Positions 1 to 43,117 of a stretch of DNA of 43,117 nucleotides are shown piece after piece. Below the pieces are notes generated by a model, which did not search any database, was not told the origin of the DNA, and saw only the letters and a program-made list of their open reading frames with translations. Source of the DNA: a virus; IMG/VR virus record IMGVR_UViG_3300035494_000025, positions 1 through 43,117 of that record. One strand, given 5' to 3'. The position numbers and the translations under genes were made by a program. Positions within the stretch are counted from its first letter, which is position 1, and the number at the start of each line of letters is the position of its first letter.

Positions 1-805
1 AGGCTCTGAAACACCCGTAGGTATCCCAAGGTATGGACTTGCAGGTGCAAGTATAGATAACGTAGGTGTATATTATGGAGGACTAATTTCGAATAATCCA
101 TTTACCCTAACAAATGCAGTAACAAGGATAAATTCTAGTGGTACTATTATAGGCTCTGAAACACCCGTAGGTATCCCAAGGCATGGACTTGCAGGTGCAA
201 GTATAGATAACGTAGGTGTATATTATGGAGGAATACGTGGCCTAGATACTATTAACCTAACAAATGCAGTAACAAGGATAAATTCTAGTGGTACTATTAT
301 AGGCTCTGAAACACCAGTAGGTATCTCAAGGTATAGACTTGCAGGTGCAAGTATAGATAACGTAGGTGTATATTATGGAGGACTTAAAGCTATATCTCCT
401 ATTGGATCAACAAATGCAGTAACAAGGATAAATTCTAGCGGTACTATTATAGGCTCTGAAACGTCTGTTGGTAAAGTAAGGCATGAACTTGCAGGCTCAA
501 GTATAGATAACGTAGGTGTATATTATGGGGGATCCCTTGCTGGCTTTAACATTAACCCAACAAATGCAGTAACAAGGATAAATTCTAGTGGTACTATTAT
601 AGGCTCTGAAACACCCGTAGGTATCCCAAGGTATGGACTTGCAGGTGCAAGTATAGATAACGTAGGTGTATATTATGGAGGACTAATTTCGAATAATCCA
701 TTTACCCCAACAAATGCAGTAACAAGGATAAATTCTAGTGGTACTATTATAGGCTCTGAAACACCTGTAGGTATACCAAGGTATGGACTTGCAGGCTCAG
801 GATTA
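1..805 (+). repeat. Tandem 150-bp direct repeats, about 5.4 copies, with units starting at 1, 151, 301, 451, 601 and 751
   Basis: aggctctgaaac... recurs exactly every 150 nt. Units are near-identical except for a block of about 27 nt after tattatggagga and a few changes near the unit start. The repeats are in frame and coding. Confidence 0.95.
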
Positions 806-808
806 TAG
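1..808 (+). CDS. Kelch-like beta-propeller repeat protein, 3' portion (the gene starts at 42812 and runs across the contig ends)
   Basis: The frame starting at base 2 is open to TAG at 806-808. It encodes five full 50-aa repeats GSETPVGIPRYGLAGASIDNVGVYYGG-x9-TNAVTRINSSGTII plus a closing half repeat. The R...hydrophobic...YYGG spacing resembles Kelch blades. It is missing from the ORF track because there is no in-window ATG. Confidence 0.75.
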   Translation, partial: GSETPVGIPRYGLAGASIDNVGVYYGGLISNNPFTLTNAVTRINSSGTIIGSETPVGIPRHGLAGASIDNVGVYYGGIRGLDTINLTNAVTRINSSGTIIGSETPVGISRYRLAGASIDNVGVYYGGLKAISPIGSTNAVTRINSSGTIIGSETSVGKVRHELAGSSIDNVGVYYGGSLAGFNINPTNAVTRINSSGTIIGSETPVGIPRYGLAGASIDNVGVYYGGLISNNPFTPTNAVTRINSSGTIIGSETPVGIPRYGLAGSGL

Positions 809-5765: not shown

Positions 5766-7703
5766 ATGGCTACACCTACTGCTAAAGGCCAGTTAAAGCT
5801 TGGTAACAAATCTAAGTTACTTCAAGCTTGTCAAGATGCCTATAAAATTAGTGAGGCGCAATATAGGAATTCTGTTAATGAAGGTAGGGAAGTAATAGAC
5901 CTTTACAATAATAGACAATACACAGCTGCACAATTAGCTACAATAGCTGAGAATGGGCAACCAGCTGAAACATTTAATATAATTAAAATGTTTAGTAATG
6001 CAATTATAGGCTACTTGGAGTCAGTAGTAAATAAAGTCAGCGTAGAGCCTAGATATTCAGGTTCTGCAGCTACAGCATTACTTCTTAATGATTTAGTTGA
6101 TTATACTCTAGACCAAAATGACTTTGAGACTATGAACAAGAAGATTAAGCTAGATGGCCTATTAACTGGTTTAATGGCTTGTGAGGAAGAGGTAGTACCT
6201 ACTGGACTTAAGGATAAGTTTGGTAGGCCTTTATTTGAGATTAGACTTAATCATGTACCAAGTTGGCAACTAAGATTAGACCCTCACTCCTTCCTTGATG
6301 ATTATAGTGATGCTAGACACTTGCACCACTTTAAATGGATGCCTGAAGAGTCACTCATTAAGTTATTTGGTGCATCTAAAGTTGCAGAGCTTACAGAATA
6401 TCATAACCATTTAGATGGGGACCCAGATGCTGATTATGAGAGACAGTTTAATGGTAGGGATATCGGTAAATATAAGCAGTATAATAACTACTTAGTTGTT
6501 AGAACTATTATAGAACATAACGGTAAGATATACAACGTTATATGGTGTGATGACGTAATACTTGAGCAAAAGGTTATAACATTTAAAGAGGTTAGATTTC
6601 CTATTCGTGTAGTTAAGATGAGTGCATCAGATATTGCAGAATACTATGGACCATTTAGAGATATAACTGAAACGCAAAAAGCTATCAACCAAGCATTGCT
6701 ACAAATACAGTTACTTGTTAATACTTCTAAGGCATTTGTAGAAGATAATGCTGTAGAAAATCTTGATGAGTTTAAAGCATTATTCAGTAGGATTAATGCT
6801 ATTATACCTGTTACTGATTTAGCTGGTATTAGAGTAGAAGATATGAGTAGAGATATACAACAACAGTATATCATCATAGACCAAGCTTTAACACGTATAA
6901 AAGTTGTATTAGGTATAAATGATAGTTTCTTAGGTTCTACGTTTGCTAGTGATAGTGGTAGAAAAGTTGCAATGAATACAGCCTCTAGCGGTAGTCAACT
7001 AACTATGGTATTAGATAGAGTTCAGTATCTATACAAGATGATAGGTACTGATATTGTTAATCTTATTAAGCAATACTATAGAGGTGAGCAAATATTTAGA
7101 ATTGCTGACCCTTTAAATGGTGCCCACTATGTTGAGATTAATAAGCCTATTCAAATGCCTACAGGTGAAATAGACCCTAATACTGGTGAGCCTATAACAA
7201 GCCTAGTATACGATGAGGAAATTAATCCTGAGACTGGTGAACTTATGGAAGATGATGAAGGCAACATAATTGTTACTCCTTTGTCGCACCCTGACTCAGC
7301 AATAGAGTTTAGTATGGTTGATATTAAGGTAAAAGCTAGTATTGCCAATAACTCACAAGAGAGAAACCAGTTACTACTTGAGACAGTAATGAATGGCCCT
7401 GCAGGTCAAGTATTACTACAAACAAACCCAGCAGGTTATCTAAGAACTTTAGCTATGGGCATTAGTGAATTTGGTACTAAGCACTCATTAGAAGTTGCAA
7501 AGGTACTAATGGATACTGCTTTAGGAATAGAGCAAGGAAAAGTAGACCCTAGGTTAGCTATGGTAGGCGGTGACTTGCAAGCTATAATGGGTGGAGCTAT
7601 GGGCGGTAATAATGGAGCTGGTGGTGCTGTTGGAGGCACAATGCAAGCTAAAGAAAGTCCTACATTAGGTATACCAAAGCCTGGTAGAGAAGGAGGTAGA
7701 TAA
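5766..7703 (+). CDS. portal protein
   Basis: 645 aa counted from the ATG at 5766 (RBS tggag), not the track start at 5685, which overlaps the upstream gene. It has an N-terminal block QYRNSVNEGREVIDLYNNRQYT...GQPAETFNIIKMFSNAIIGYL typical of portals, a Gly-rich C-terminus, and a typical size. Confidence 0.7.
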   Translation: MATPTAKGQLKLGNKSKLLQACQDAYKISEAQYRNSVNEGREVIDLYNNRQYTAAQLATIAENGQPAETFNIIKMFSNAIIGYLESVVNKVSVEPRYSGSAATALLLNDLVDYTLDQNDFETMNKKIKLDGLLTGLMACEEEVVPTGLKDKFGRPLFEIRLNHVPSWQLRLDPHSFLDDYSDARHLHHFKWMPEESLIKLFGASKVAELTEYHNHLDGDPDADYERQFNGRDIGKYKQYNNYLVVRTIIEHNGKIYNVIWCDDVILEQKVITFKEVRFPIRVVKMSASDIAEYYGPFRDITETQKAINQALLQIQLLVNTSKAFVEDNAVENLDEFKALFSRINAIIPVTDLAGIRVEDMSRDIQQQYIIIDQALTRIKVVLGINDSFLGSTFASDSGRKVAMNTASSGSQLTMVLDRVQYLYKMIGTDIVNLIKQYYRGEQIFRIADPLNGAHYVEINKPIQMPTGEIDPNTGEPITSLVYDEEINPETGELMEDDEGNIIVTPLSHPDSAIEFSMVDIKVKASIANNSQERNQLLLETVMNGPAGQVLLQTNPAGYLRTLAMGISEFGTKHSLEVAKVLMDTALGIEQGKVDPRLAMVGGDLQAIMGGAMGGNNGAGGAVGGTMQAKESPTLGIPKPGREGGR

Positions 7704-9625
7704 TGTCTGGTAGTATGTTTGGTGGTCAAGCCATGAGTAATGCTCTTCAAAGTGGTTTAAATGCTTATGCAACTGTGGAGAATATAAAAACTAGTATTCA
7801 AGATAGACAACTTAGAGCTAAAGCTGCAGCAGATGAAGCTAAACTTAGGGCTGAGCAGATAAAAGGAGCGCAAAGCCAAAACGTAATAGCTTCAGCTCAG
7901 GCTGCAGGCTATGAACAGCTTAAAGCCGAATTAGATAGCTTAAAAAGTCAGCTACAAGCAGAGCAAGGTGATAAAGCCAAAACATTAGTAGCTAATGTAT
8001 TAACAGCTAAAATTCCTACAGAACAAAATGATGCACTTAGAATATTTAAAAGCCGTGCGCCTAAATCTGTGCTAGATGCTTTAGATATTAAAGATGTTGG
8101 TAATTTATCTTTACTTAGTGAACATGATATTAAAGACACAAAAGCGTATTTAGCTAAACTACCAGGAGTAGATGCTACAACATTAACTGATGATAATGTT
8201 AAGAAAGTAATTGATGAAGGTTTCTTAATTAAAAATGGCGGCCAAATAGTAGATATTAGTGCTGTTTCTGCTCAAATGGGTGTATATGATACTTTAACTA
8301 AAGAACAAAAAGCTTATCTGGAAGACTCTAGTGCTAGGATACGGAATATTATAGCTCCTAATAAAGATGGAGCTACTCCAGTAGCACAAAGTAATGGAGC
8401 TACTCCAGTAGTACAAAGTCCTGAAGCTACTCCAGCAGTACAAAGTAATGGAGCTACTCCAGTAGCGCCTAATAAAGACTTTGCACCTAGTACTGCCTCT
8501 ACAGTAGATACAGAGGCTTTAAAAGCTGAGATTAACAAACGTGCTAGACAATTAGCTGGAATACCTGCTGATGCTGACAATAGGGTAGCATTAGAGAAAG
8601 AACTTGACTATATAACAAAGCAATTTCCAGGTCAAGATGCTGTTGAAATTTATAGACAGCTAAAACGTTCAAGTAGTGGTGGTTCCCTTGCATGGGATGA
8701 AAGAGTCTTGGAGATGGAAAAAACCATTATGAGAAATGAGGGCATTTCAGAGGGTAGTACTGAATGGAATTCCAGGTTAGCCAAAACAATGGAGCAAATT
8801 AATACTAAGCAGCTGCAAGGTGTTGGTAGTAATGTAACTAGGGATGATATAGAAATAGCAACTAATGCACAAGCATTCGGTAGTATGATTATTAGTAGTA
8901 ATAGCGGTAATGGTTACGTTATTCCTAAGAATGCACAAGAAGTAGAAAATAGATTTATGACTACTGAGCAATTTACAGCTGGTGGCATAAATAAAGACTT
9001 TAAGGATTTTAAAGCTCAATATGCTTCAACTGCTAAGATAGTTGATTTAAGTGCAAGAGTAGATGATTATATAAAAAGAGGAGGTAACTTAGGTATTGAA
9101 AAGTCTATAATGACTACATTTGCCACTAAACTACCTCAGTTTGTTAAAGATACTATACCTGAAGATATAGCAGCTATGGATGCAAAAGATATTGCTGAGA
9201 GTATGGGTATTAAAGGTGAGTCTACATTAATCATCGGTGAAATGGTTAAAGCTATGTATGGTGGTCAGGCGTCTAATAGAGATAGGGAAACATTTGAAGC
9301 TGTAATTAGGAATGGCGCATGGGATAACAATTTTGCTATTCAAGAGAGCTTAAGAAATATGGCTAATGTTACCATTAAATCTACTAAAACAAGTGGTGAG
9401 AAATTAATACAGGCTGGTATGGTATACACTCCTGCCAAGTATATTAATGAGCTAACTACACTTAAGCCTAAGAGTAATAGTAATAAGCCTAGTGTAAATA
9501 ATAAGCCTACTGTTAATATTAAACCACTAACTGATGAAGAGAAGGCAGCTGGCTGGTCTATTAAGCAACAAAATGGTAAATACTACAAAGTCAATATGCA
9601 GACTAAGCAATATGAGGAGCTATAA
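7703..9625 (+). CDS. large virion protein (putative internal or ejection protein)
   Basis: 640 aa with a coiled-coil N-terminus. ATGs overlap or directly abut the neighbouring stops at both ends of the gene (7700-7705 and 9623-9628). No enzymatic motif recognised. Confidence 0.5.
   Translation: MSGSMFGGQAMSNALQSGLNAYATVENIKTSIQDRQLRAKAAADEAKLRAEQIKGAQSQNVIASAQAAGYEQLKAELDSLKSQLQAEQGDKAKTLVANVLTAKIPTEQNDALRIFKSRAPKSVLDALDIKDVGNLSLLSEHDIKDTKAYLAKLPGVDATTLTDDNVKKVIDEGFLIKNGGQIVDISAVSAQMGVYDTLTKEQKAYLEDSSARIRNIIAPNKDGATPVAQSNGATPVVQSPEATPAVQSNGATPVAPNKDFAPSTASTVDTEALKAEINKRARQLAGIPADADNRVALEKELDYITKQFPGQDAVEIYRQLKRSSSGGSLAWDERVLEMEKTIMRNEGISEGSTEWNSRLAKTMEQINTKQLQGVGSNVTRDDIEIATNAQAFGSMIISSNSGNGYVIPKNAQEVENRFMTTEQFTAGGINKDFKDFKAQYASTAKIVDLSARVDDYIKRGGNLGIEKSIMTTFATKLPQFVKDTIPEDIAAMDAKDIAESMGIKGESTLIIGEMVKAMYGGQASNRDRETFEAVIRNGAWDNNFAIQESLRNMANVTIKSTKTSGEKLIQAGMVYTPAKYINELTTLKPKSNSNKPSVNNKPTVNIKPLTDEEKAAGWSIKQQNGKYYKVNMQTKQYEEL
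8353..8479 (+). repeat. In-frame 27-nt tandem repeat (3.7 units, GATPVAQSN) flanked by APNKD
   Basis: Units lie at 8369, 8396, 8423 and 8450 (ggagctactccagtagcacaaagtaat and variants), bracketed by cctaataaaga on both sides. Confidence 0.9.
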
Positions 9626-39283: not shown

Positions 39284-39922
39284 ATGGTGAATGTTACCAA
39301 AGGTTTAGCATTAACTGAGGATTTAGAGCTTGGATTTGGTTTATCTGGCCAGCCAAGGGGCGGTAGTAAGATAAGTGCTTTTACTATACCTTACACAACA
39401 AGTCTCAGTATAGGTATAGCACTAGATGATAGATATACTAAAGCAGAGTCTGATGCAAAATATGCAACTTTAAATGGCTCTGATTTAGTTTTATTTAAAG
39501 TTGCCAATGGTGTAAGTGGTTATGATGCTGTTACCTATCAGCAATACATTACTAGGGCGGCATTAACTGGTTCTAGTAGTCAAACGTTTAATGTAGCTGA
39601 TGATACTGATAGTATGCATGCAGTTAATAGACGGAGATTAGATGCTGATTTAGCTTTAAAAGATAATGTTGTAGATGTTAACTCTAAGCTATCCTTAAAA
39701 GCTGATATAACTGATATGGCGATGAGAGCTTTATCTAGCGATGTGTTAGAACTAACTAATGGTGTACCATATAACCCAACTTCAGACTATAACCCAGCTA
39801 CAAAAAGATATGTAGATAACACAGTAGCTAGTGCATTTACGTTTGGTGCTAGCGGTACGTTCTTATCATCTGATAATAAGTTAGTAACAGTTACTAACGG
39901 CCTAATAACAGGAATTGTATAA
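39284..39922 (+). CDS. tail fibre protein (short)
   Basis: It shares the L.GS..Q.F.V.DDT.SMHAVNR.RLDADLA.K repeat and the P.SD.NPATK.YVD motif with the following 655-aa fibre. Confidence 0.6.
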   Translation: MVNVTKGLALTEDLELGFGLSGQPRGGSKISAFTIPYTTSLSIGIALDDRYTKAESDAKYATLNGSDLVLFKVANGVSGYDAVTYQQYITRAALTGSSSQTFNVADDTDSMHAVNRRRLDADLALKDNVVDVNSKLSLKADITDMAMRALSSDVLELTNGVPYNPTSDYNPATKRYVDNTVASAFTFGASGTFLSSDNKLVTVTNGLITGIV

Positions 39923-41889
39923 TGAGCTATATAAAAATAACAAAAGAGAAAATTGTAGCTGAAGACTTAGCACTATCTACCTCTACTGTACAGCAATCCA
40001 GAGGAGTTGGCACAGGTATAAGTGCAGCTGTAATACCTTTCACGGAAGGTACAAATGTATTAGCTGTAGTTAATGCTAAAGAAACTATAGCTAATTCAGA
40101 TGCTAAACTTGCTACTAAAGCTGCACTTAATGGTTCTAGTACTCAAACATTTTCAGTAGATACTGACACACTACCATCTCATGCAGTAAATAGAGCTAGG
40201 GTTGATGAATTGCTACTTCTTAAGGCTAGTAAGACTTATGTAGATAGTGAATTAGCTACAAAGGCTGAATTAGCTGGTTCAAGCTTACAGCAATTTGAAG
40301 TAGCTGATGATACAAATAGTATGCATGCAGTTAATAGACAAAGATTAGATGCTGATTTAGCTTTTAAAGCAAATACATCAGATGTATTAGATGCACTTGC
40401 ATTAAAAGCTGATGTATTAAATGTTCTTAGATTAGATGGTTTAAGCCCTGAGTTTACTCCTACTAGCGATAATCAGCCAGCTACTAAAAAGTACATAGAT
40501 GATAAGATACTAGAGACTGGCGCAGCTGATATGCGTAAAGCAGTATATGACACAGACGAAAGTGGTATAGTAGATACAACTGAAGGCGTAGGTATACCCG
40601 GTACATTTCTAGGTCTTACCCCTCAAAATAAGATAATGAGATTAAGCCAATCTAATGTTTTAGATTGTAATACTTTATCAGATTTTGGTATATTTGTAGG
40701 TACGGATGTAGCTAATGCACCTACTAGTGGATTTATAGCACTAGAACAAATGTCTTCCGGTATTATAAAAGGACAAAGATGTTTATCATTTAGCACATTA
40801 GATTGGTACTATAGAACCTACAATGGTACAGTATGGTCTGCTTGGAGTAAGACATTAGATGAGTCTGAGATAGTAGATAACCTTAATGGTGGTACACTAT
40901 ATAAAGTATTATCTGCTAATCAAGGTAAAGTACTAGATGATAAAATTACAGCCTTAAATAGTTCTAAGTTAGATGCAACTGATGCAGCTGTATCAGCAGA
41001 TAAGCTTACAACTGCTAGGACAATTAATGGTGTATCATTTGATGGTAGTGCTGATATAACAGTAAGTGATTCTACAGCAGTTAAAAACACTGGTAATGAA
41101 ACGATATCTGGGGTTAAAACTTTTACATCAAGCCCAATAGTACCAACACCAACAACTGATTTTCAAGTAGCTACTAAAAAATATGTAGATGAAGCTATAA
41201 ATATAAACACTTTACCAGATAAACCAACTTCAGTTGATACAGATAATTTTGTTTTACAAGAAGTTGGAGGAGATTTAAAAAAGCTAAGTTTTGAAAATCT
41301 TAAATTATCTTTATTTAATCCAACTCTAGCTGGAACTGTATCATTTGATTCTACTACTAATAATATTGAATTAACAAATATAGTAACAGCTTTAGGCTTA
41401 GAAATTGGAGATGTTATTCAGATTAGTGGAGCTGAAGATTCTAAAAACAACTCTGAATTTACAGTTGAAGTAATAACAGATGATGACAATATTATAGTAA
41501 ATCAAGCTCACGCAAATAAAGGTACAAGTAAAAACATAGCTACAAGAGCAAGTGATACTGGGGTAACTGTTAAGCTACTAGCTAAGTGGTATAATGCTCT
41601 GATAGGGCTAGGAATGGGTTGGGTAGATGTAACATCTAGCAGAAATCCAAATGTTAACTATAATCCATTTCCTAATAGAGATATTCTTGTGGGCACGAAC
41701 GCTAGTGTTAGTTCAACTGGGGAGTCCGCAAGGATTTTCCAAGGAGGGTATATAATATCTAGTAGTTTTTTAGGTAGTACTGCGGCTATTACTACTTTTA
41801 CGGCTTTGGTTAAATACGACAACGGTGTTTATTTTTGGGCTCCATCTGGCGGAACAATGACTTTAGCTAGGGTAATGGAGTTAAGATAA
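39922..41889 (+). CDS. tail fibre protein (long)
   Basis: It has repeated HAVNR..D..L..KA units, three ATKKY(V/I)D motifs and RTINGVSFDGSADITV, a classic fibre repeat. A chaperone-like gene follows. Confidence 0.75.
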   Translation: MSYIKITKEKIVAEDLALSTSTVQQSRGVGTGISAAVIPFTEGTNVLAVVNAKETIANSDAKLATKAALNGSSTQTFSVDTDTLPSHAVNRARVDELLLLKASKTYVDSELATKAELAGSSLQQFEVADDTNSMHAVNRQRLDADLAFKANTSDVLDALALKADVLNVLRLDGLSPEFTPTSDNQPATKKYIDDKILETGAADMRKAVYDTDESGIVDTTEGVGIPGTFLGLTPQNKIMRLSQSNVLDCNTLSDFGIFVGTDVANAPTSGFIALEQMSSGIIKGQRCLSFSTLDWYYRTYNGTVWSAWSKTLDESEIVDNLNGGTLYKVLSANQGKVLDDKITALNSSKLDATDAAVSADKLTTARTINGVSFDGSADITVSDSTAVKNTGNETISGVKTFTSSPIVPTPTTDFQVATKKYVDEAININTLPDKPTSVDTDNFVLQEVGGDLKKLSFENLKLSLFNPTLAGTVSFDSTTNNIELTNIVTALGLEIGDVIQISGAEDSKNNSEFTVEVITDDDNIIVNQAHANKGTSKNIATRASDTGVTVKLLAKWYNALIGLGMGWVDVTSSRNPNVNYNPFPNRDILVGTNASVSSTGESARIFQGGYIISSSFLGSTAAITTFTALVKYDNGVYFWAPSGGTMTLARVMELR

Positions 41890-42254
41890 TGAAATATGTA
41901 ATTAATTATACAGAACAAGGCAAAATTTTAGGATTTGCAAAAGGCGATACTGATTTAAACATAGAAGTATCAAATGCTATTTGGTTTGAAGCTCAAAGTT
42001 ATAACAAAATCATAATTGATGGTGAGAATATTAGCTTTGATAAAGTTGATTGGCGAACTCCAGAAGAGATTAAACAAGAAACTCAAGCACAATTTAGAGC
42101 AGAAAGAAACAATCTCCTAGTAGAAGCTGATATAGAAATAAATAAGTCAGTAGACTTAGGATTAGACTCAACAGAGTGGAGAGTATATAGACAAGCACTT
42201 AGAGACTCAACATTAACTTGTGTATTACCAAGTAAACCAACGGAGGTAAAATAA
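41889..42254 (+). CDS. tail fibre assembly chaperone (putative)
   Basis: 121 aa. The C-terminal half AQFRAERNNLLVEADIEIN......STEWRVYRQALRDST....LPSKP fits the tail-fibre-assembly pattern (R..r..lL...D ... W..YRq.LRD...P.kP). Confidence 0.6.
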   Translation: MKYVINYTEQGKILGFAKGDTDLNIEVSNAIWFEAQSYNKIIIDGENISFDKVDWRTPEEIKQETQAQFRAERNNLLVEADIEINKSVDLGLDSTEWRVYRQALRDSTLTCVLPSKPTEVK

Positions 42255-42275: not shown

Positions 42276-42590
42276 ATGTTAAATAATGTCCCCCCTGAAT
42301 GGCTCCCTAACATGTTCACGTGGTTGTGGGTGATACTACTCTCTATCTGGGGCGGAACCGTGCACACAATACGTAAAATTAAAACTGGGACTATTAGCAG
42401 GTTCTCGCTAAGCGAATGGATCGGCGACACGGTTACGTCTGGCTTTATCGGCGTTGTGACTTATGCTCTTTGCCAGCATAGCGGGTTTGATGGATGGCTC
42501 ACTGCTGCGCTCGTCGGTGTGGCGTCACACCAAGGGACGCGTGGTTTAGTTTTAATAGAAGAGCTTATCGCTCGAAAAATAAGGGGATAG
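42276..42590 (+). CDS. holin, three-TM class I (lambda S / LydA-like)
   Basis: 104 aa with three hydrophobic segments (WLWVILLSIWGG, TVTSGFIGVVTYAL, WLTAALVGVASH) and a basic C-terminus. It is visibly much more GC-rich than its neighbours. Confidence 0.6.
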   Translation: MLNNVPPEWLPNMFTWLWVILLSIWGGTVHTIRKIKTGTISRFSLSEWIGDTVTSGFIGVVTYALCQHSGFDGWLTAALVGVASHQGTRGLVLIEELIARKIRG

Positions 42591-42592
42591 TT

Positions 42593-42802
42593 ATGCAAGT
42601 ATATGCCATAGCGGCTGGTGCACTTATAGTCACGGTACATGCAACAAACGCATTAGCAATATCTAGTAATACATTAGCTTTGCATAAAGGTAATGTGGCA
42701 TATAAGACAGTAGAAGTAGCAGCACAAAAATCTACTAGTTCTACCTATGGCTGTGCTAAAATGGCATTAAGTGGTAAAACATTAACTATCCCTACAACCT
42801 AA
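42593..42802 (+). CDS. small secreted or membrane-anchored protein (69 aa)
   Basis: The start is taken at the ATG at 42593 (RBS aagggga) rather than track start 42494, which overlaps the holin. The N-terminal hydrophobic segment VYAIAAGALIVTVHATNALA is signal-peptide-like. Confidence 0.45.
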   Translation: MQVYAIAAGALIVTVHATNALAISSNTLALHKGNVAYKTVEVAAQKSTSSTYGCAKMALSGKTLTIPTT

Positions 42803-42811
42803 GGAGGGTAT

Positions 42812-43117
42812 ATGCCTTTAATTTTTAATGGTACTAAAATACCAGAAAATGTAGCAAATGTACTTAAGTTTAATGGTACTAATATTACTAAAGTAATATT
42901 TAATGGTGTTGCAGTTTGGGTGCAGAATTTGTATGTAGGCCCTACTGTAGGTGTATATTATGGAGGACTAATTTCGAATAATCCATTTACCCCAACAAAT
43001 GCAGTAACAAGGATAAATTCTAGTGGTACTATTATAGGCTCTGAAACACCCGTAGGTATCCCAAGGTATGGACTTGCAGGTGCAAGTATAGATAACGTAG
43101 GTGTATATTATGGAGGA
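42812..43117 (+). CDS. Kelch-like beta-propeller repeat protein, 5' portion (continues at base 1)
   Basis: aaggagggtatATG is a strong RBS. The frame is open to the last base. The last 82 nt equal bases 1-82, and the frame is continuous with 1-808. The joined gene (42812-43035 plus 1-808) is 1032 nt, or 343 aa. Confidence 0.75.
   Translation, partial: MPLIFNGTKIPENVANVLKFNGTNITKVIFNGVAVWVQNLYVGPTVGVYYGGLISNNPFTPTNAVTRINSSGTIIGSETPVGIPRYGLAGASIDNVGVYYGG

Follow-up and report, generated by a model that had tools for sequence, protein, structure and literature searches.

A Kelch-like propeller of near-identical blades with divergent loop cassettes, encoded beside a helical partner in an uncultured phage genome

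In this work, we analyzed the virus record IMGVR_UViG_3300035494_000025 of IMG/VR over its whole length of 43,117 nucleotides (nt), hereafter called the window, and focused on one gene that runs across the joined ends of this contig. The gene encodes a protein of 343 amino acids (aa) built largely from 50-aa blades of a predicted Kelch-like propeller, and these blades are near-identical to each other except for one sharply bounded loop of nine codons per blade, here called the cassette. The near-identity extends to synonymous sites, related phages with very similar flanks differ in their number of units, and a second gene for a helical protein follows directly downstream. Judging from its neighbors and from the domains to which relatives are fused, the propeller is rather probably an adhesin or an accessory receptor-binding module of the virion.

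Repeat units and loop cassettes

Tandem Repeats Finder detected a period of 150 nt with 5.3 copies at window positions 1–795, and frame 2 of positions 1–808 is open up to a TAG stop codon at 806–808. The start of the gene was found at the other end of the contig, at an ATG at 42812 on the plus strand, from where the open reading frame (ORF) leaves the contig at its end. The window begins and ends with the same 82 nt (1–82 = 43036–43117), and the contig closes on itself. With one copy of this overlap removed, the joined gene has 1032 nt and gives the 343-aa protein that had been proposed in the initial annotation of this stretch. It is composed of a 47-aa N-terminal region, five units of 50 aa, and a sixth unit of 46 aa that ends in LAGSGL. 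The parts of the gene are listed below; strands B to D, the B–C loop and the D–A loop refer to the predicted blade described in the next section.

42801–42807, plus strand: ribosome-binding site AAGGAGG, ahead of the ATG at 42812
42812–43117, plus strand: 5′ part of the propeller gene with the ATG, the 47-aa N-terminal region, strands B–D of blade 1 and the start of blade 2
1–82, plus strand: terminal overlap, exact duplicate of 43036–43117, counted once in the joined gene
83–808, plus strand: remainder of the propeller gene with blades 2–6 and, closing blade 1, the C-terminal strand A (LAGSGL)
42968–42994, plus strand: cassette of unit 1, LISNNPFTP, B–C loop
83–109, plus strand: cassette of unit 2, LISNNPFTL, B–C loop
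233–259, plus strand: cassette of unit 3, IRGLDTINL, B–C loop
383–409, plus strand: cassette of unit 4, LKAISPIGS, B–C loop
533–559, plus strand: cassette of unit 5, SLAGFNINP, B–C loop
683–709, plus strand: cassette of unit 6, LISNNPFTP, B–C loop, equal to the cassette of unit 1 at 27 of 27 nt
461–490, plus strand: second variable patch of unit 4, TSVGKVRHE, end of strand D and D–A loop
43046–43075, 161–190, 311–340, 611–640 and 761–790, plus strand: counterparts of the second patch in the other units

The initial annotation had described five near-identical 50-aa units that differ in a 9-codon cassette after YYGG, together with a second variable patch near the unit start (PVGIPRYG, PVGIPRHG, PVGISRYR and SVGKVRHE). 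Translation of positions 2–808 gives exactly these cassettes and the same patch. It had further stated that the differences are concentrated in the cassette, and this was confirmed by counting at the nucleotide level: 23 of the 27 cassette columns are variable as opposed to 15 of the 123 columns elsewhere (hypergeometric P = 2.3e-13). In pairwise comparisons between units, distinct cassettes are identical at only 10–13 of 27 nt, whereas the remaining 123 nt, in the following referred to as the framework, are 88.6–99.2% identical. Most of the 15 variable framework columns fall into the second patch at unit offsets 95–118, and the framework that follows the cassette of unit 4 is the most diverged of the six, with approximately 89% identity to the others.

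For most unit pairs, there are 1–4 differences per 123 nt of framework, while the cassettes differ at 14–17 of 27 nt. Such a combination of few framework and many cassette differences is not what uniform point mutation since duplication would leave behind; the cassettes are therefore either older than the homogenized frameworks, or they were brought in by recombination. At the same time, the cassette LISNNPFT(P/L) is common to units 1, 2 and 6, i.e., to three of the six blades, from which it follows that whole units were also copied with their loop included.

Predicted fold and placement of the variable loops

The joined protein was modeled with AlphaFold using an alignment of eight sequences, resulting in a closed six-bladed propeller with a predicted local distance difference test score (pLDDT) of 85.9 and a predicted template-modeling score of 0.84. 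The blades exceed a pLDDT of 93, and drops to 76–85 are confined to the sequence blocks with the cassettes. A terminal strand is formed by residues 329–342. When this model was searched against the PDB with Foldseek, six-bladed Kelch domains filled the top of the list, with KEAP1 as the best match (E = 8e-17, template-modeling score 0.80–0.83, root-mean-square deviation approximately 3.2 Å), followed by KLHL20, KLHL12 and the designed SAKe6 proteins. In a fold search among viral models, the best matches were to uncultured tailed phages (uncharacterized proteins), to Burkholderia phage BcepSaruman (a 'Kelch-motif' protein) and to poxviruses (Kelch proteins).

The same relation was recovered from sequence profiles. 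A profile of 47 members of the phage propeller family retrieved only Kelch proteins from 177,635 PDB sequences, namely KLHL20 (3.4e-6), KLHL17 (1.2e-5) and SAKe6FR (5.6e-3). The alignment to KLHL20 is in the right register: GG falls on GG, N-V-x-R-I-N on N-V-E-R-Y-D, and R on R; the 'FYGG' of the family is aligned with the 'YAVGG' of KLHL20, and VGVYYGG occurs in every unit of the window protein. With a closed six-bladed model, Kelch domains as top fold matches and a Kelch-only profile result, the Kelch propeller assumed in the initial annotation is supported.

With regards to family membership, the window protein had no match to any Pfam Kelch model, and only 2 of the 47 family members reached E ≤ 0.01 with these models; a long member, P0024, scored 22 bits against a cut-off of 50. 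Single-sequence scans of the propeller and of its downstream partner against Pfam, PHROGs, NCBIfam and PADLOC gave nothing significant. Matches to SpnB_Rossmann, DUF1317 and DUF5122 were sub-threshold, look like noise driven by the repeats, and were discarded.

With KEAP1, KLHL20, KLHL12 and SAKe6, the protein shares six blades, a conserved Arg before strand A, and a hydrophobic strand that ends in the GG doublet and is followed by a variable loop. Its repeat of exactly 50 aa (150 nt) lies within the Kelch unit length of about 44–56 residues, a C-terminal strand A closes blade 1 in the model (the family always ends in LAGAGL), and long B–C and D–A loops are located on one face. Unlike these proteins, it stays under every Pfam Kelch threshold and does not keep the signature Tyr and Trp: the Tyr-Asp of RYD is replaced by Ile-Asn in RIN, and the Trp position is taken by Ile, Leu or Val. 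Furthermore, it carries no BTB/BACK domain, and its blades are approximately 92% identical to each other. Thus, the protein is Kelch-like by fold and by remote Kelch homology, and not a Kelch member by the standards of Pfam.

Within each blade, strand A corresponds to AGASI, strand B to VGVYYGG, strand C to AVTRIN, and strand D lies around PVGIPRY. The B–C loop consists of the cassette plus TN and has 11 residues, as do all six B–C loops of KLHL20. The D–A loop lies around R-Y-G, and the second variable patch covers the end of strand D and this loop. In KLHL20, the C-terminal strand A completes blade 1, and the face with the B–C and D–A loops is the substrate-binding surface (PMC6720452). The loops of the phage protein were placed by strand order, by the HMMER alignment to KLHL20, and by blade topology: in a four-stranded antiparallel blade, the B–C and D–A loops come to lie on the same face. 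On this basis, both variable patches are predicted to map to one face of the disc, the one that binds ligands in Kelch proteins, and the exposed position claimed for the cassette in the initial annotation is supported by topology and alignment. When 367 framework copies of relatives were compared, positions around the conserved Arg were among the most variable ones, and the same positions vary in the window.

As a side observation, four relatives (P0018, P0157, P0159 and P0158) have cysteine-rich B–C loops, e.g., VQGYYCCACGFLCCFAWTNT. This hints at loops that may be disulfide-stabilized or metal-binding, and at an extracellular setting.

Homogenization, gain and loss of units

The initial annotation had attributed the near-identity of the repeats to concerted evolution or recent amplification, and the synonymous sites agree with this. 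The third codon positions of the framework are identical at a fraction of 0.918 within the window protein and of 0.858 within P0001, which belongs to the nearest lineage, as compared to 0.43 between the two. Purifying selection at the protein level was considered as the cause of the likeness and rejected, since synonymous sites are equally identical within a lineage and so much less alike between lineages. At the amino-acid level, the framework identity between blades of the window protein is 0.92, the highest in the family, in which other members go down to about 0.3. As in propellers classed as highly repetitive, the blades are far closer to each other than to the blades of homologs, at synonymous sites as well. 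This indicates that the units within each lineage are of recent common ancestry, via re-amplification or gene conversion.

Gain and loss of units could be followed in a sister lineage. The contigs L024, L025 and L002 have flanks that are 95–98% identical, and yet their propeller genes (proteins P0160, P0155 and P0001, respectively) hold different numbers of units.

L024, 4001–4561: propeller gene with 3 units
L025, 4001–4837: propeller gene with 5 units
L002, 371–1501: propeller gene with 7 units

The genes for P0155 and P0001 are identical across their last 351 nt, and P0155 has as its unit 3 an exact hybrid between units 4 and 5 of P0001, joined inside the framework. The change in copy number that had been anticipated from the repeat structure is thus supported by these sister phages. 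Internal exact repeats in this lineage measure 47–78 nt. The contig records name k-mers of 127 and 141, longer than these repeats, which makes a collapse by the assembler unlikely here. Oligomeric propellers are known (PMC6805158), and dimers or other oligomers with closed propellers would account for the short variants.

Taken as a mechanism, these data would fit a scheme in which the 123-nt frameworks are kept near-identical through recent unit duplication plus gene conversion or unequal recombination between blades. The loop cassettes would then be old or have been exchanged, with selection as the probable cause of their lasting differences. Being identical, the frameworks could serve as built-in homology arms, along which blades may be duplicated, deleted or swapped in frame.

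Gene context and putative function

With 43 kb and a G+C content of 35.5%, the window looks like a complete phage genome. In PHROG scans of 29 of its ORFs, a terminase, a portal protein, a major head protein, a tail fiber, a DNA polymerase, helicases and a ligase were found. On the plus strand, the order is tail fiber, tail fiber assembly, holin, a 69-aa ORF, the propeller, the 183-aa partner, small membrane-protein ORFs and endolysin, so that two genes (holin and the 69-aa ORF) separate the propeller from the tail fiber assembly gene.

39922–41889, plus strand: tail fiber gene, 655 aa, PHROG tail fiber families and Pfam Phage_fiber_rpt
41889–42254, plus strand: tail fiber assembly protein gene, from the library scan
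42276–42590, plus strand: holin gene, G+C 0.50 as compared to 0.355 for the genome
818–1369, plus strand: partner gene, 183 aa, starting 9 nt past the propeller stop codon
1967–2416, plus strand: endolysin gene, from the library scan

The partner is 45–51% identical to its counterparts in the loci L001 and L002, where it lies directly downstream of the propeller, as it also does in L003. It was present in all 14 IMG/VR loci with a propeller (14/14), directly downstream in 12. As L001–L004 have no other genes than these two in common with the window, the pair appears to move as a module. The partner family comprises at least 51 clusters and has a very conserved N-terminus, MxQxNHNxxYLxxVDGxTxWERLRVIRNFL. 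Its model is all helical (pLDDT 89), with no fold match in the PDB at E < 0.3 and no Pfam, PHROG, NCBIfam or PADLOC family to which it could be assigned. A partner gene was also found after a fiber gene without a propeller, in L008.

The propeller family amounts to at least 316 clusters at 50% identity, all of them metagenomic. When 185,579 species genomes were scanned with a degenerate motif, this returned 8 chance matches, no family member and no clue to a host. In several relatives, the propeller gene stands directly after a tail-fiber gene: in L001, a T7-like podovirus; in L018, a siphovirus with a central fiber of the lambda-J type; in L021, a T4-type myovirus, where it follows the gene for the distal subunit of a gp37-like long tail fiber; and in L012. 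Long family members end in the propeller, which is preceded by a sub-threshold Mtd_N match, by DUF7941, by sub-threshold fn3/Ig matches, or by DUF285 repeats.

From this gene context and these domain fusions, we consider it rather probable that the propeller is a virion-associated adhesin or an accessory receptor-binding module. The neighbors in the window (tail fiber, tail fiber assembly, holin and endolysin, all on the same strand) fit such a role, and the propeller would be made late, together with the tail fiber and lysis genes of that strand. It would work with the co-transcribed helical partner, for which a function as a chaperone or adaptor is possible. With blades 6, 1 and 2 having the same loop, the adhesin may be lectin-like and multivalent.

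Several points weigh against this assignment. In the window, the gene lies between holin and endolysin and not directly after the fiber, and in some loci the neighbors are PhoH, endolysin or a 2OG-Fe(II) oxygenase; accessory genes, too, accumulate in regions of this kind. For the propeller and its partner, there was no match to a PHROG, NCBIfam or PADLOC family or, by blastn and tblastn, to any of 50,697 GenBank phages. A search for the exact framework 23-mer in IMG/VR and JGI metagenome contigs found no close relative of the window phage, and none was confirmed when IMG/VR was scanned with a protein seed, so that cassette turnover was followed in the sister lineage (L002, L024 and L025). The count of six blades depends on an assembly join inside an exact repeat of 152 nt. 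As residues 1–40 were modeled poorly (pLDDT of approximately 49), an attachment to the tail via the N-terminal region is conjecture, and the presence of the protein in the virion is a prediction from the genes.

The main alternative is that the protein is accessory and non-structural. Together with its partner, the propeller would act in or on the infected cell, for instance by binding a host protein, in anti-defense, in superinfection exclusion or in lysis timing, and the loops would track a variable host target instead of a surface receptor. The position of the pair between the holin and the spanin/endolysin genes and the PhoH, endolysin or oxygenase neighbors elsewhere speak for this, as does the movement of the pair among otherwise unrelated phages, which resembles that of accessory genes; moreover, Kelch proteins of eukaryotes and poxviruses serve as substrate adaptors inside the cell. 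However, the gene stands directly after the last tail-fiber gene in podo-, sipho- and myovirus backgrounds, and the propeller forms the C-terminus of long multidomain proteins, one of them with a sub-threshold match to the Mtd_N tail-fiber domain. In addition, PADLOC gave no match, and the orientation is that of the late structural genes. On balance, we regard an accessory protein as a serious but rather unlikely explanation.

Some observations on relatives are added here. In L004 (7374–12315), three propeller-family genes follow each other, and in one of these the propeller forms the C-terminal part of a 657-aa protein. In L014 (11113–13207), adjacent ORFs hold 8 and 4 units and are maybe a disrupted 12-unit gene or two propellers. 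A second type of N-terminus (M-x-L-x-x-S-G-x-I-S-L...) takes the place of the MPLIFNG type in P0006, P0007, P0008 and P0156. It was also found as a separate 87-aa ORF (L003, 9734–9997) just upstream of P0156 and may be a shared docking module. The 47-aa N-terminus of the window propeller was likewise sought in the other ORFs of the window as a possible shared docking domain, with no match.

The contig join and the number of units

The joined gene has exact internal repeats of 152 nt and 104 nt, and the contig ends inside the longer one. Since the terminal 82-nt overlap falls within this intragenic repeat, both the circular closure and the copy number of the units hang on one ambiguous join. 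A break at the 152-nt repeat is what is expected of a short-read assembler. We infer six units as the minimal solution; in principle, an assembler could pass through the block of units 2–5 repeatedly. The array as such is secure, and only its copy number is ambiguous.

A more far-reaching objection is that the array, or its copy number and unit order, is partly an artefact of short-read assembly, possibly of chained strain variants, and that the true number of blades differs. Both contig ends lie inside the repeat with 82 nt in common, and the exact repeats of 152 and 104 nt are as long as or longer than the k-mers of 127 and 141 nt named in the records of related contigs; the possible repeated passage through units 2–5 points in the same direction. 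On the other hand, units 2–5 are each tagged by a unique cassette and by framework single-nucleotide polymorphisms in one contiguous stretch, and six is the most common unit number, with 55 of 117 complete-looking family members and 12 of 15 genes in IMG/VR loci. Where the repeats of relatives are well diverged and their assembly is unambiguous, the architecture is the same, also with six units, and six units close confidently into a ring in the AlphaFold model. An artefact of this kind is therefore judged improbable. In general terms, the gene is of a type that short-read assemblies will routinely break or miscount.

Relation to known systems and mode of diversification

Could the propeller be an enzyme, such as a six-bladed sialidase-like or glycosidase depolymerase acting on a host surface polymer? 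Six-bladed propellers are the catalytic domains of sialidases and of the endosialidase of phage K1F, and the gene is near tail genes. However, the top fold matches are Kelch domains and not sialidases, the near-invariant columns of the family are all glycines with no unique catalytic set among them, and near-identical blades leave no space for an asymmetric active site. We thus rate an enzymatic role as very improbable.

Propellers are also found in the tails of Staphylococcus phages, where they are reportedly five-bladed, part of trimeric baseplate proteins, not Kelch-like, and made of diverged blades. Their role as host-recognition modules is described in the reports on phi11 Gp45 (PMC4901313), 80alpha (PMC7048315) and P68 (PMC6795507). 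Highly repetitive, recently amplified propellers, Kelch-type and viral ones included, were surveyed by Pereira and Lupas (2022, PMC9218822). The phage protein resembles the amplified propellers of that survey and of Afanasieva et al. (2019, PMC6805158) in its near-identical blades, which point to a recent amplification from a single blade, and in a blade number that varies among relatives. It differs from them in that each of its blades excludes one sharply bounded loop from the identity, and in its location in a tail and lysis region with an obligate helical partner.

Another point of comparison is gp38 of T-even phages, a small adhesin encoded directly after the distal tail-fiber gene (Trojet et al. 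2011, PMC3157838). In gp38, conserved glycine-rich motifs alternate with hypervariable segments for host specificity, and recombination in the motifs swaps the specificity (PMC3157838). The gene position equals that of the propeller in L021, and conserved motifs flank variable segments in both. However, fold and sequence are unrelated, and gp38 has neither a propeller nor near-identical tandem units; the likeness is an analogy of design and not homology. In line with this, no match of the propeller to a PHROG or, by tblastn, to GenBank phages pointed to gp38, and its predicted fold is a propeller.

A eukaryotic counterpart may be seen in the WD40 repeats of the fungal HNWD/HET-E proteins, which are said to be propeller blades under concerted evolution with few hypervariable positions on the binding surface. 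They belong to the WD40 class and to an intracellular NOD-like immune receptor of fungi. Furthermore, their variation is described for single positions, whereas a whole 9-codon loop is replaced in the phage propeller. The instability and diversification of these repeats in a family for non-self recognition are treated in the work by Paoletti et al. (2007, PMC1805685) and Chevanne et al. (2010, PMC2873952).

Compared with these systems, it is the combination that appears to be new: a Kelch-like, six-bladed and homogenized propeller with whole-loop cassettes and a helical partner, which occurs across podo-, sipho- and myovirus backgrounds and is missing from curated libraries of families. If the protein is an adhesin, it would represent a natural scaffold of identical blades with exchangeable loops, the design that is sought in the engineered SAKe Kelch binders. 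It would also add a route to host-range change by recombination only, beside diversity-generating retroelements (DGRs) and gp38-type shuffling. Nascent propellers of 3, 5, 6 and 7 blades, in part in nearly isogenic genomes, bear on the question of how propellers originate from single blades. Lastly, an annotation is gained for at least 316 protein clusters and for the linked partner family of at least 51 clusters, which are currently unannotated.

As a tentative proposal, which we hold to be possible without being the expected outcome, the propeller and its partner may constitute a host-range module that is widespread in uncultured aquatic phages and has not been described so far, working as a recombination-driven 'accordion' without a dedicated mutagenic enzyme. 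The near-identical frameworks of 123 nt would be kept up to act as homology arms inside the gene, and whole blades with their binding loops would be duplicated, deleted and exchanged in frame within and between phages. Variants of 3–7 blades at flanks of 95–98% identity could arise in this way, and receptor specificity could change rapidly.

Targeted hypermutation of the cassettes, by a DGR or another form of programmed mutagenesis, has in its favor that the variation is sharply bounded and extremely localized, but it is hardly credible here, because neither a reverse transcriptase (large ORFs, motif search and PHROG scans of the 29 window ORFs) nor a copy of the unit outside the propeller gene that could act as a template was found in the window, the cassette differences take in all four bases and not adenine positions only, and loops in relatives vary in length from 4 to 20 aa. 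Loop-length differences are not produced by DGRs. Three matches to a Y-x-D-D motif in the window lie in the tail fiber, the portal protein and a head-protein-like ORF. A DGR was consequently rejected, as it had been in the initial annotation.

Further features of the window

A few observations outside the propeller locus complete the picture of this genome. A 78-aa ORF at 2440–2676, between the endolysin gene and the gene for a 577-aa virion protein, has no PHROG match and resembles by eye a free-standing tail-fiber N-terminus. Inside a 640-aa ORF (7703–9625), also without a PHROG match, a 27-nt tandem repeat of 3.7 copies with 86% matches extends over positions 8367–8466. The G+C content of the holin gene suggests, by its difference from the genome, that this gene was recently acquired horizontally. 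Directly after the partner gene, the intergenic region holds an (AT)20 dinucleotide microsatellite at 1374–1413.

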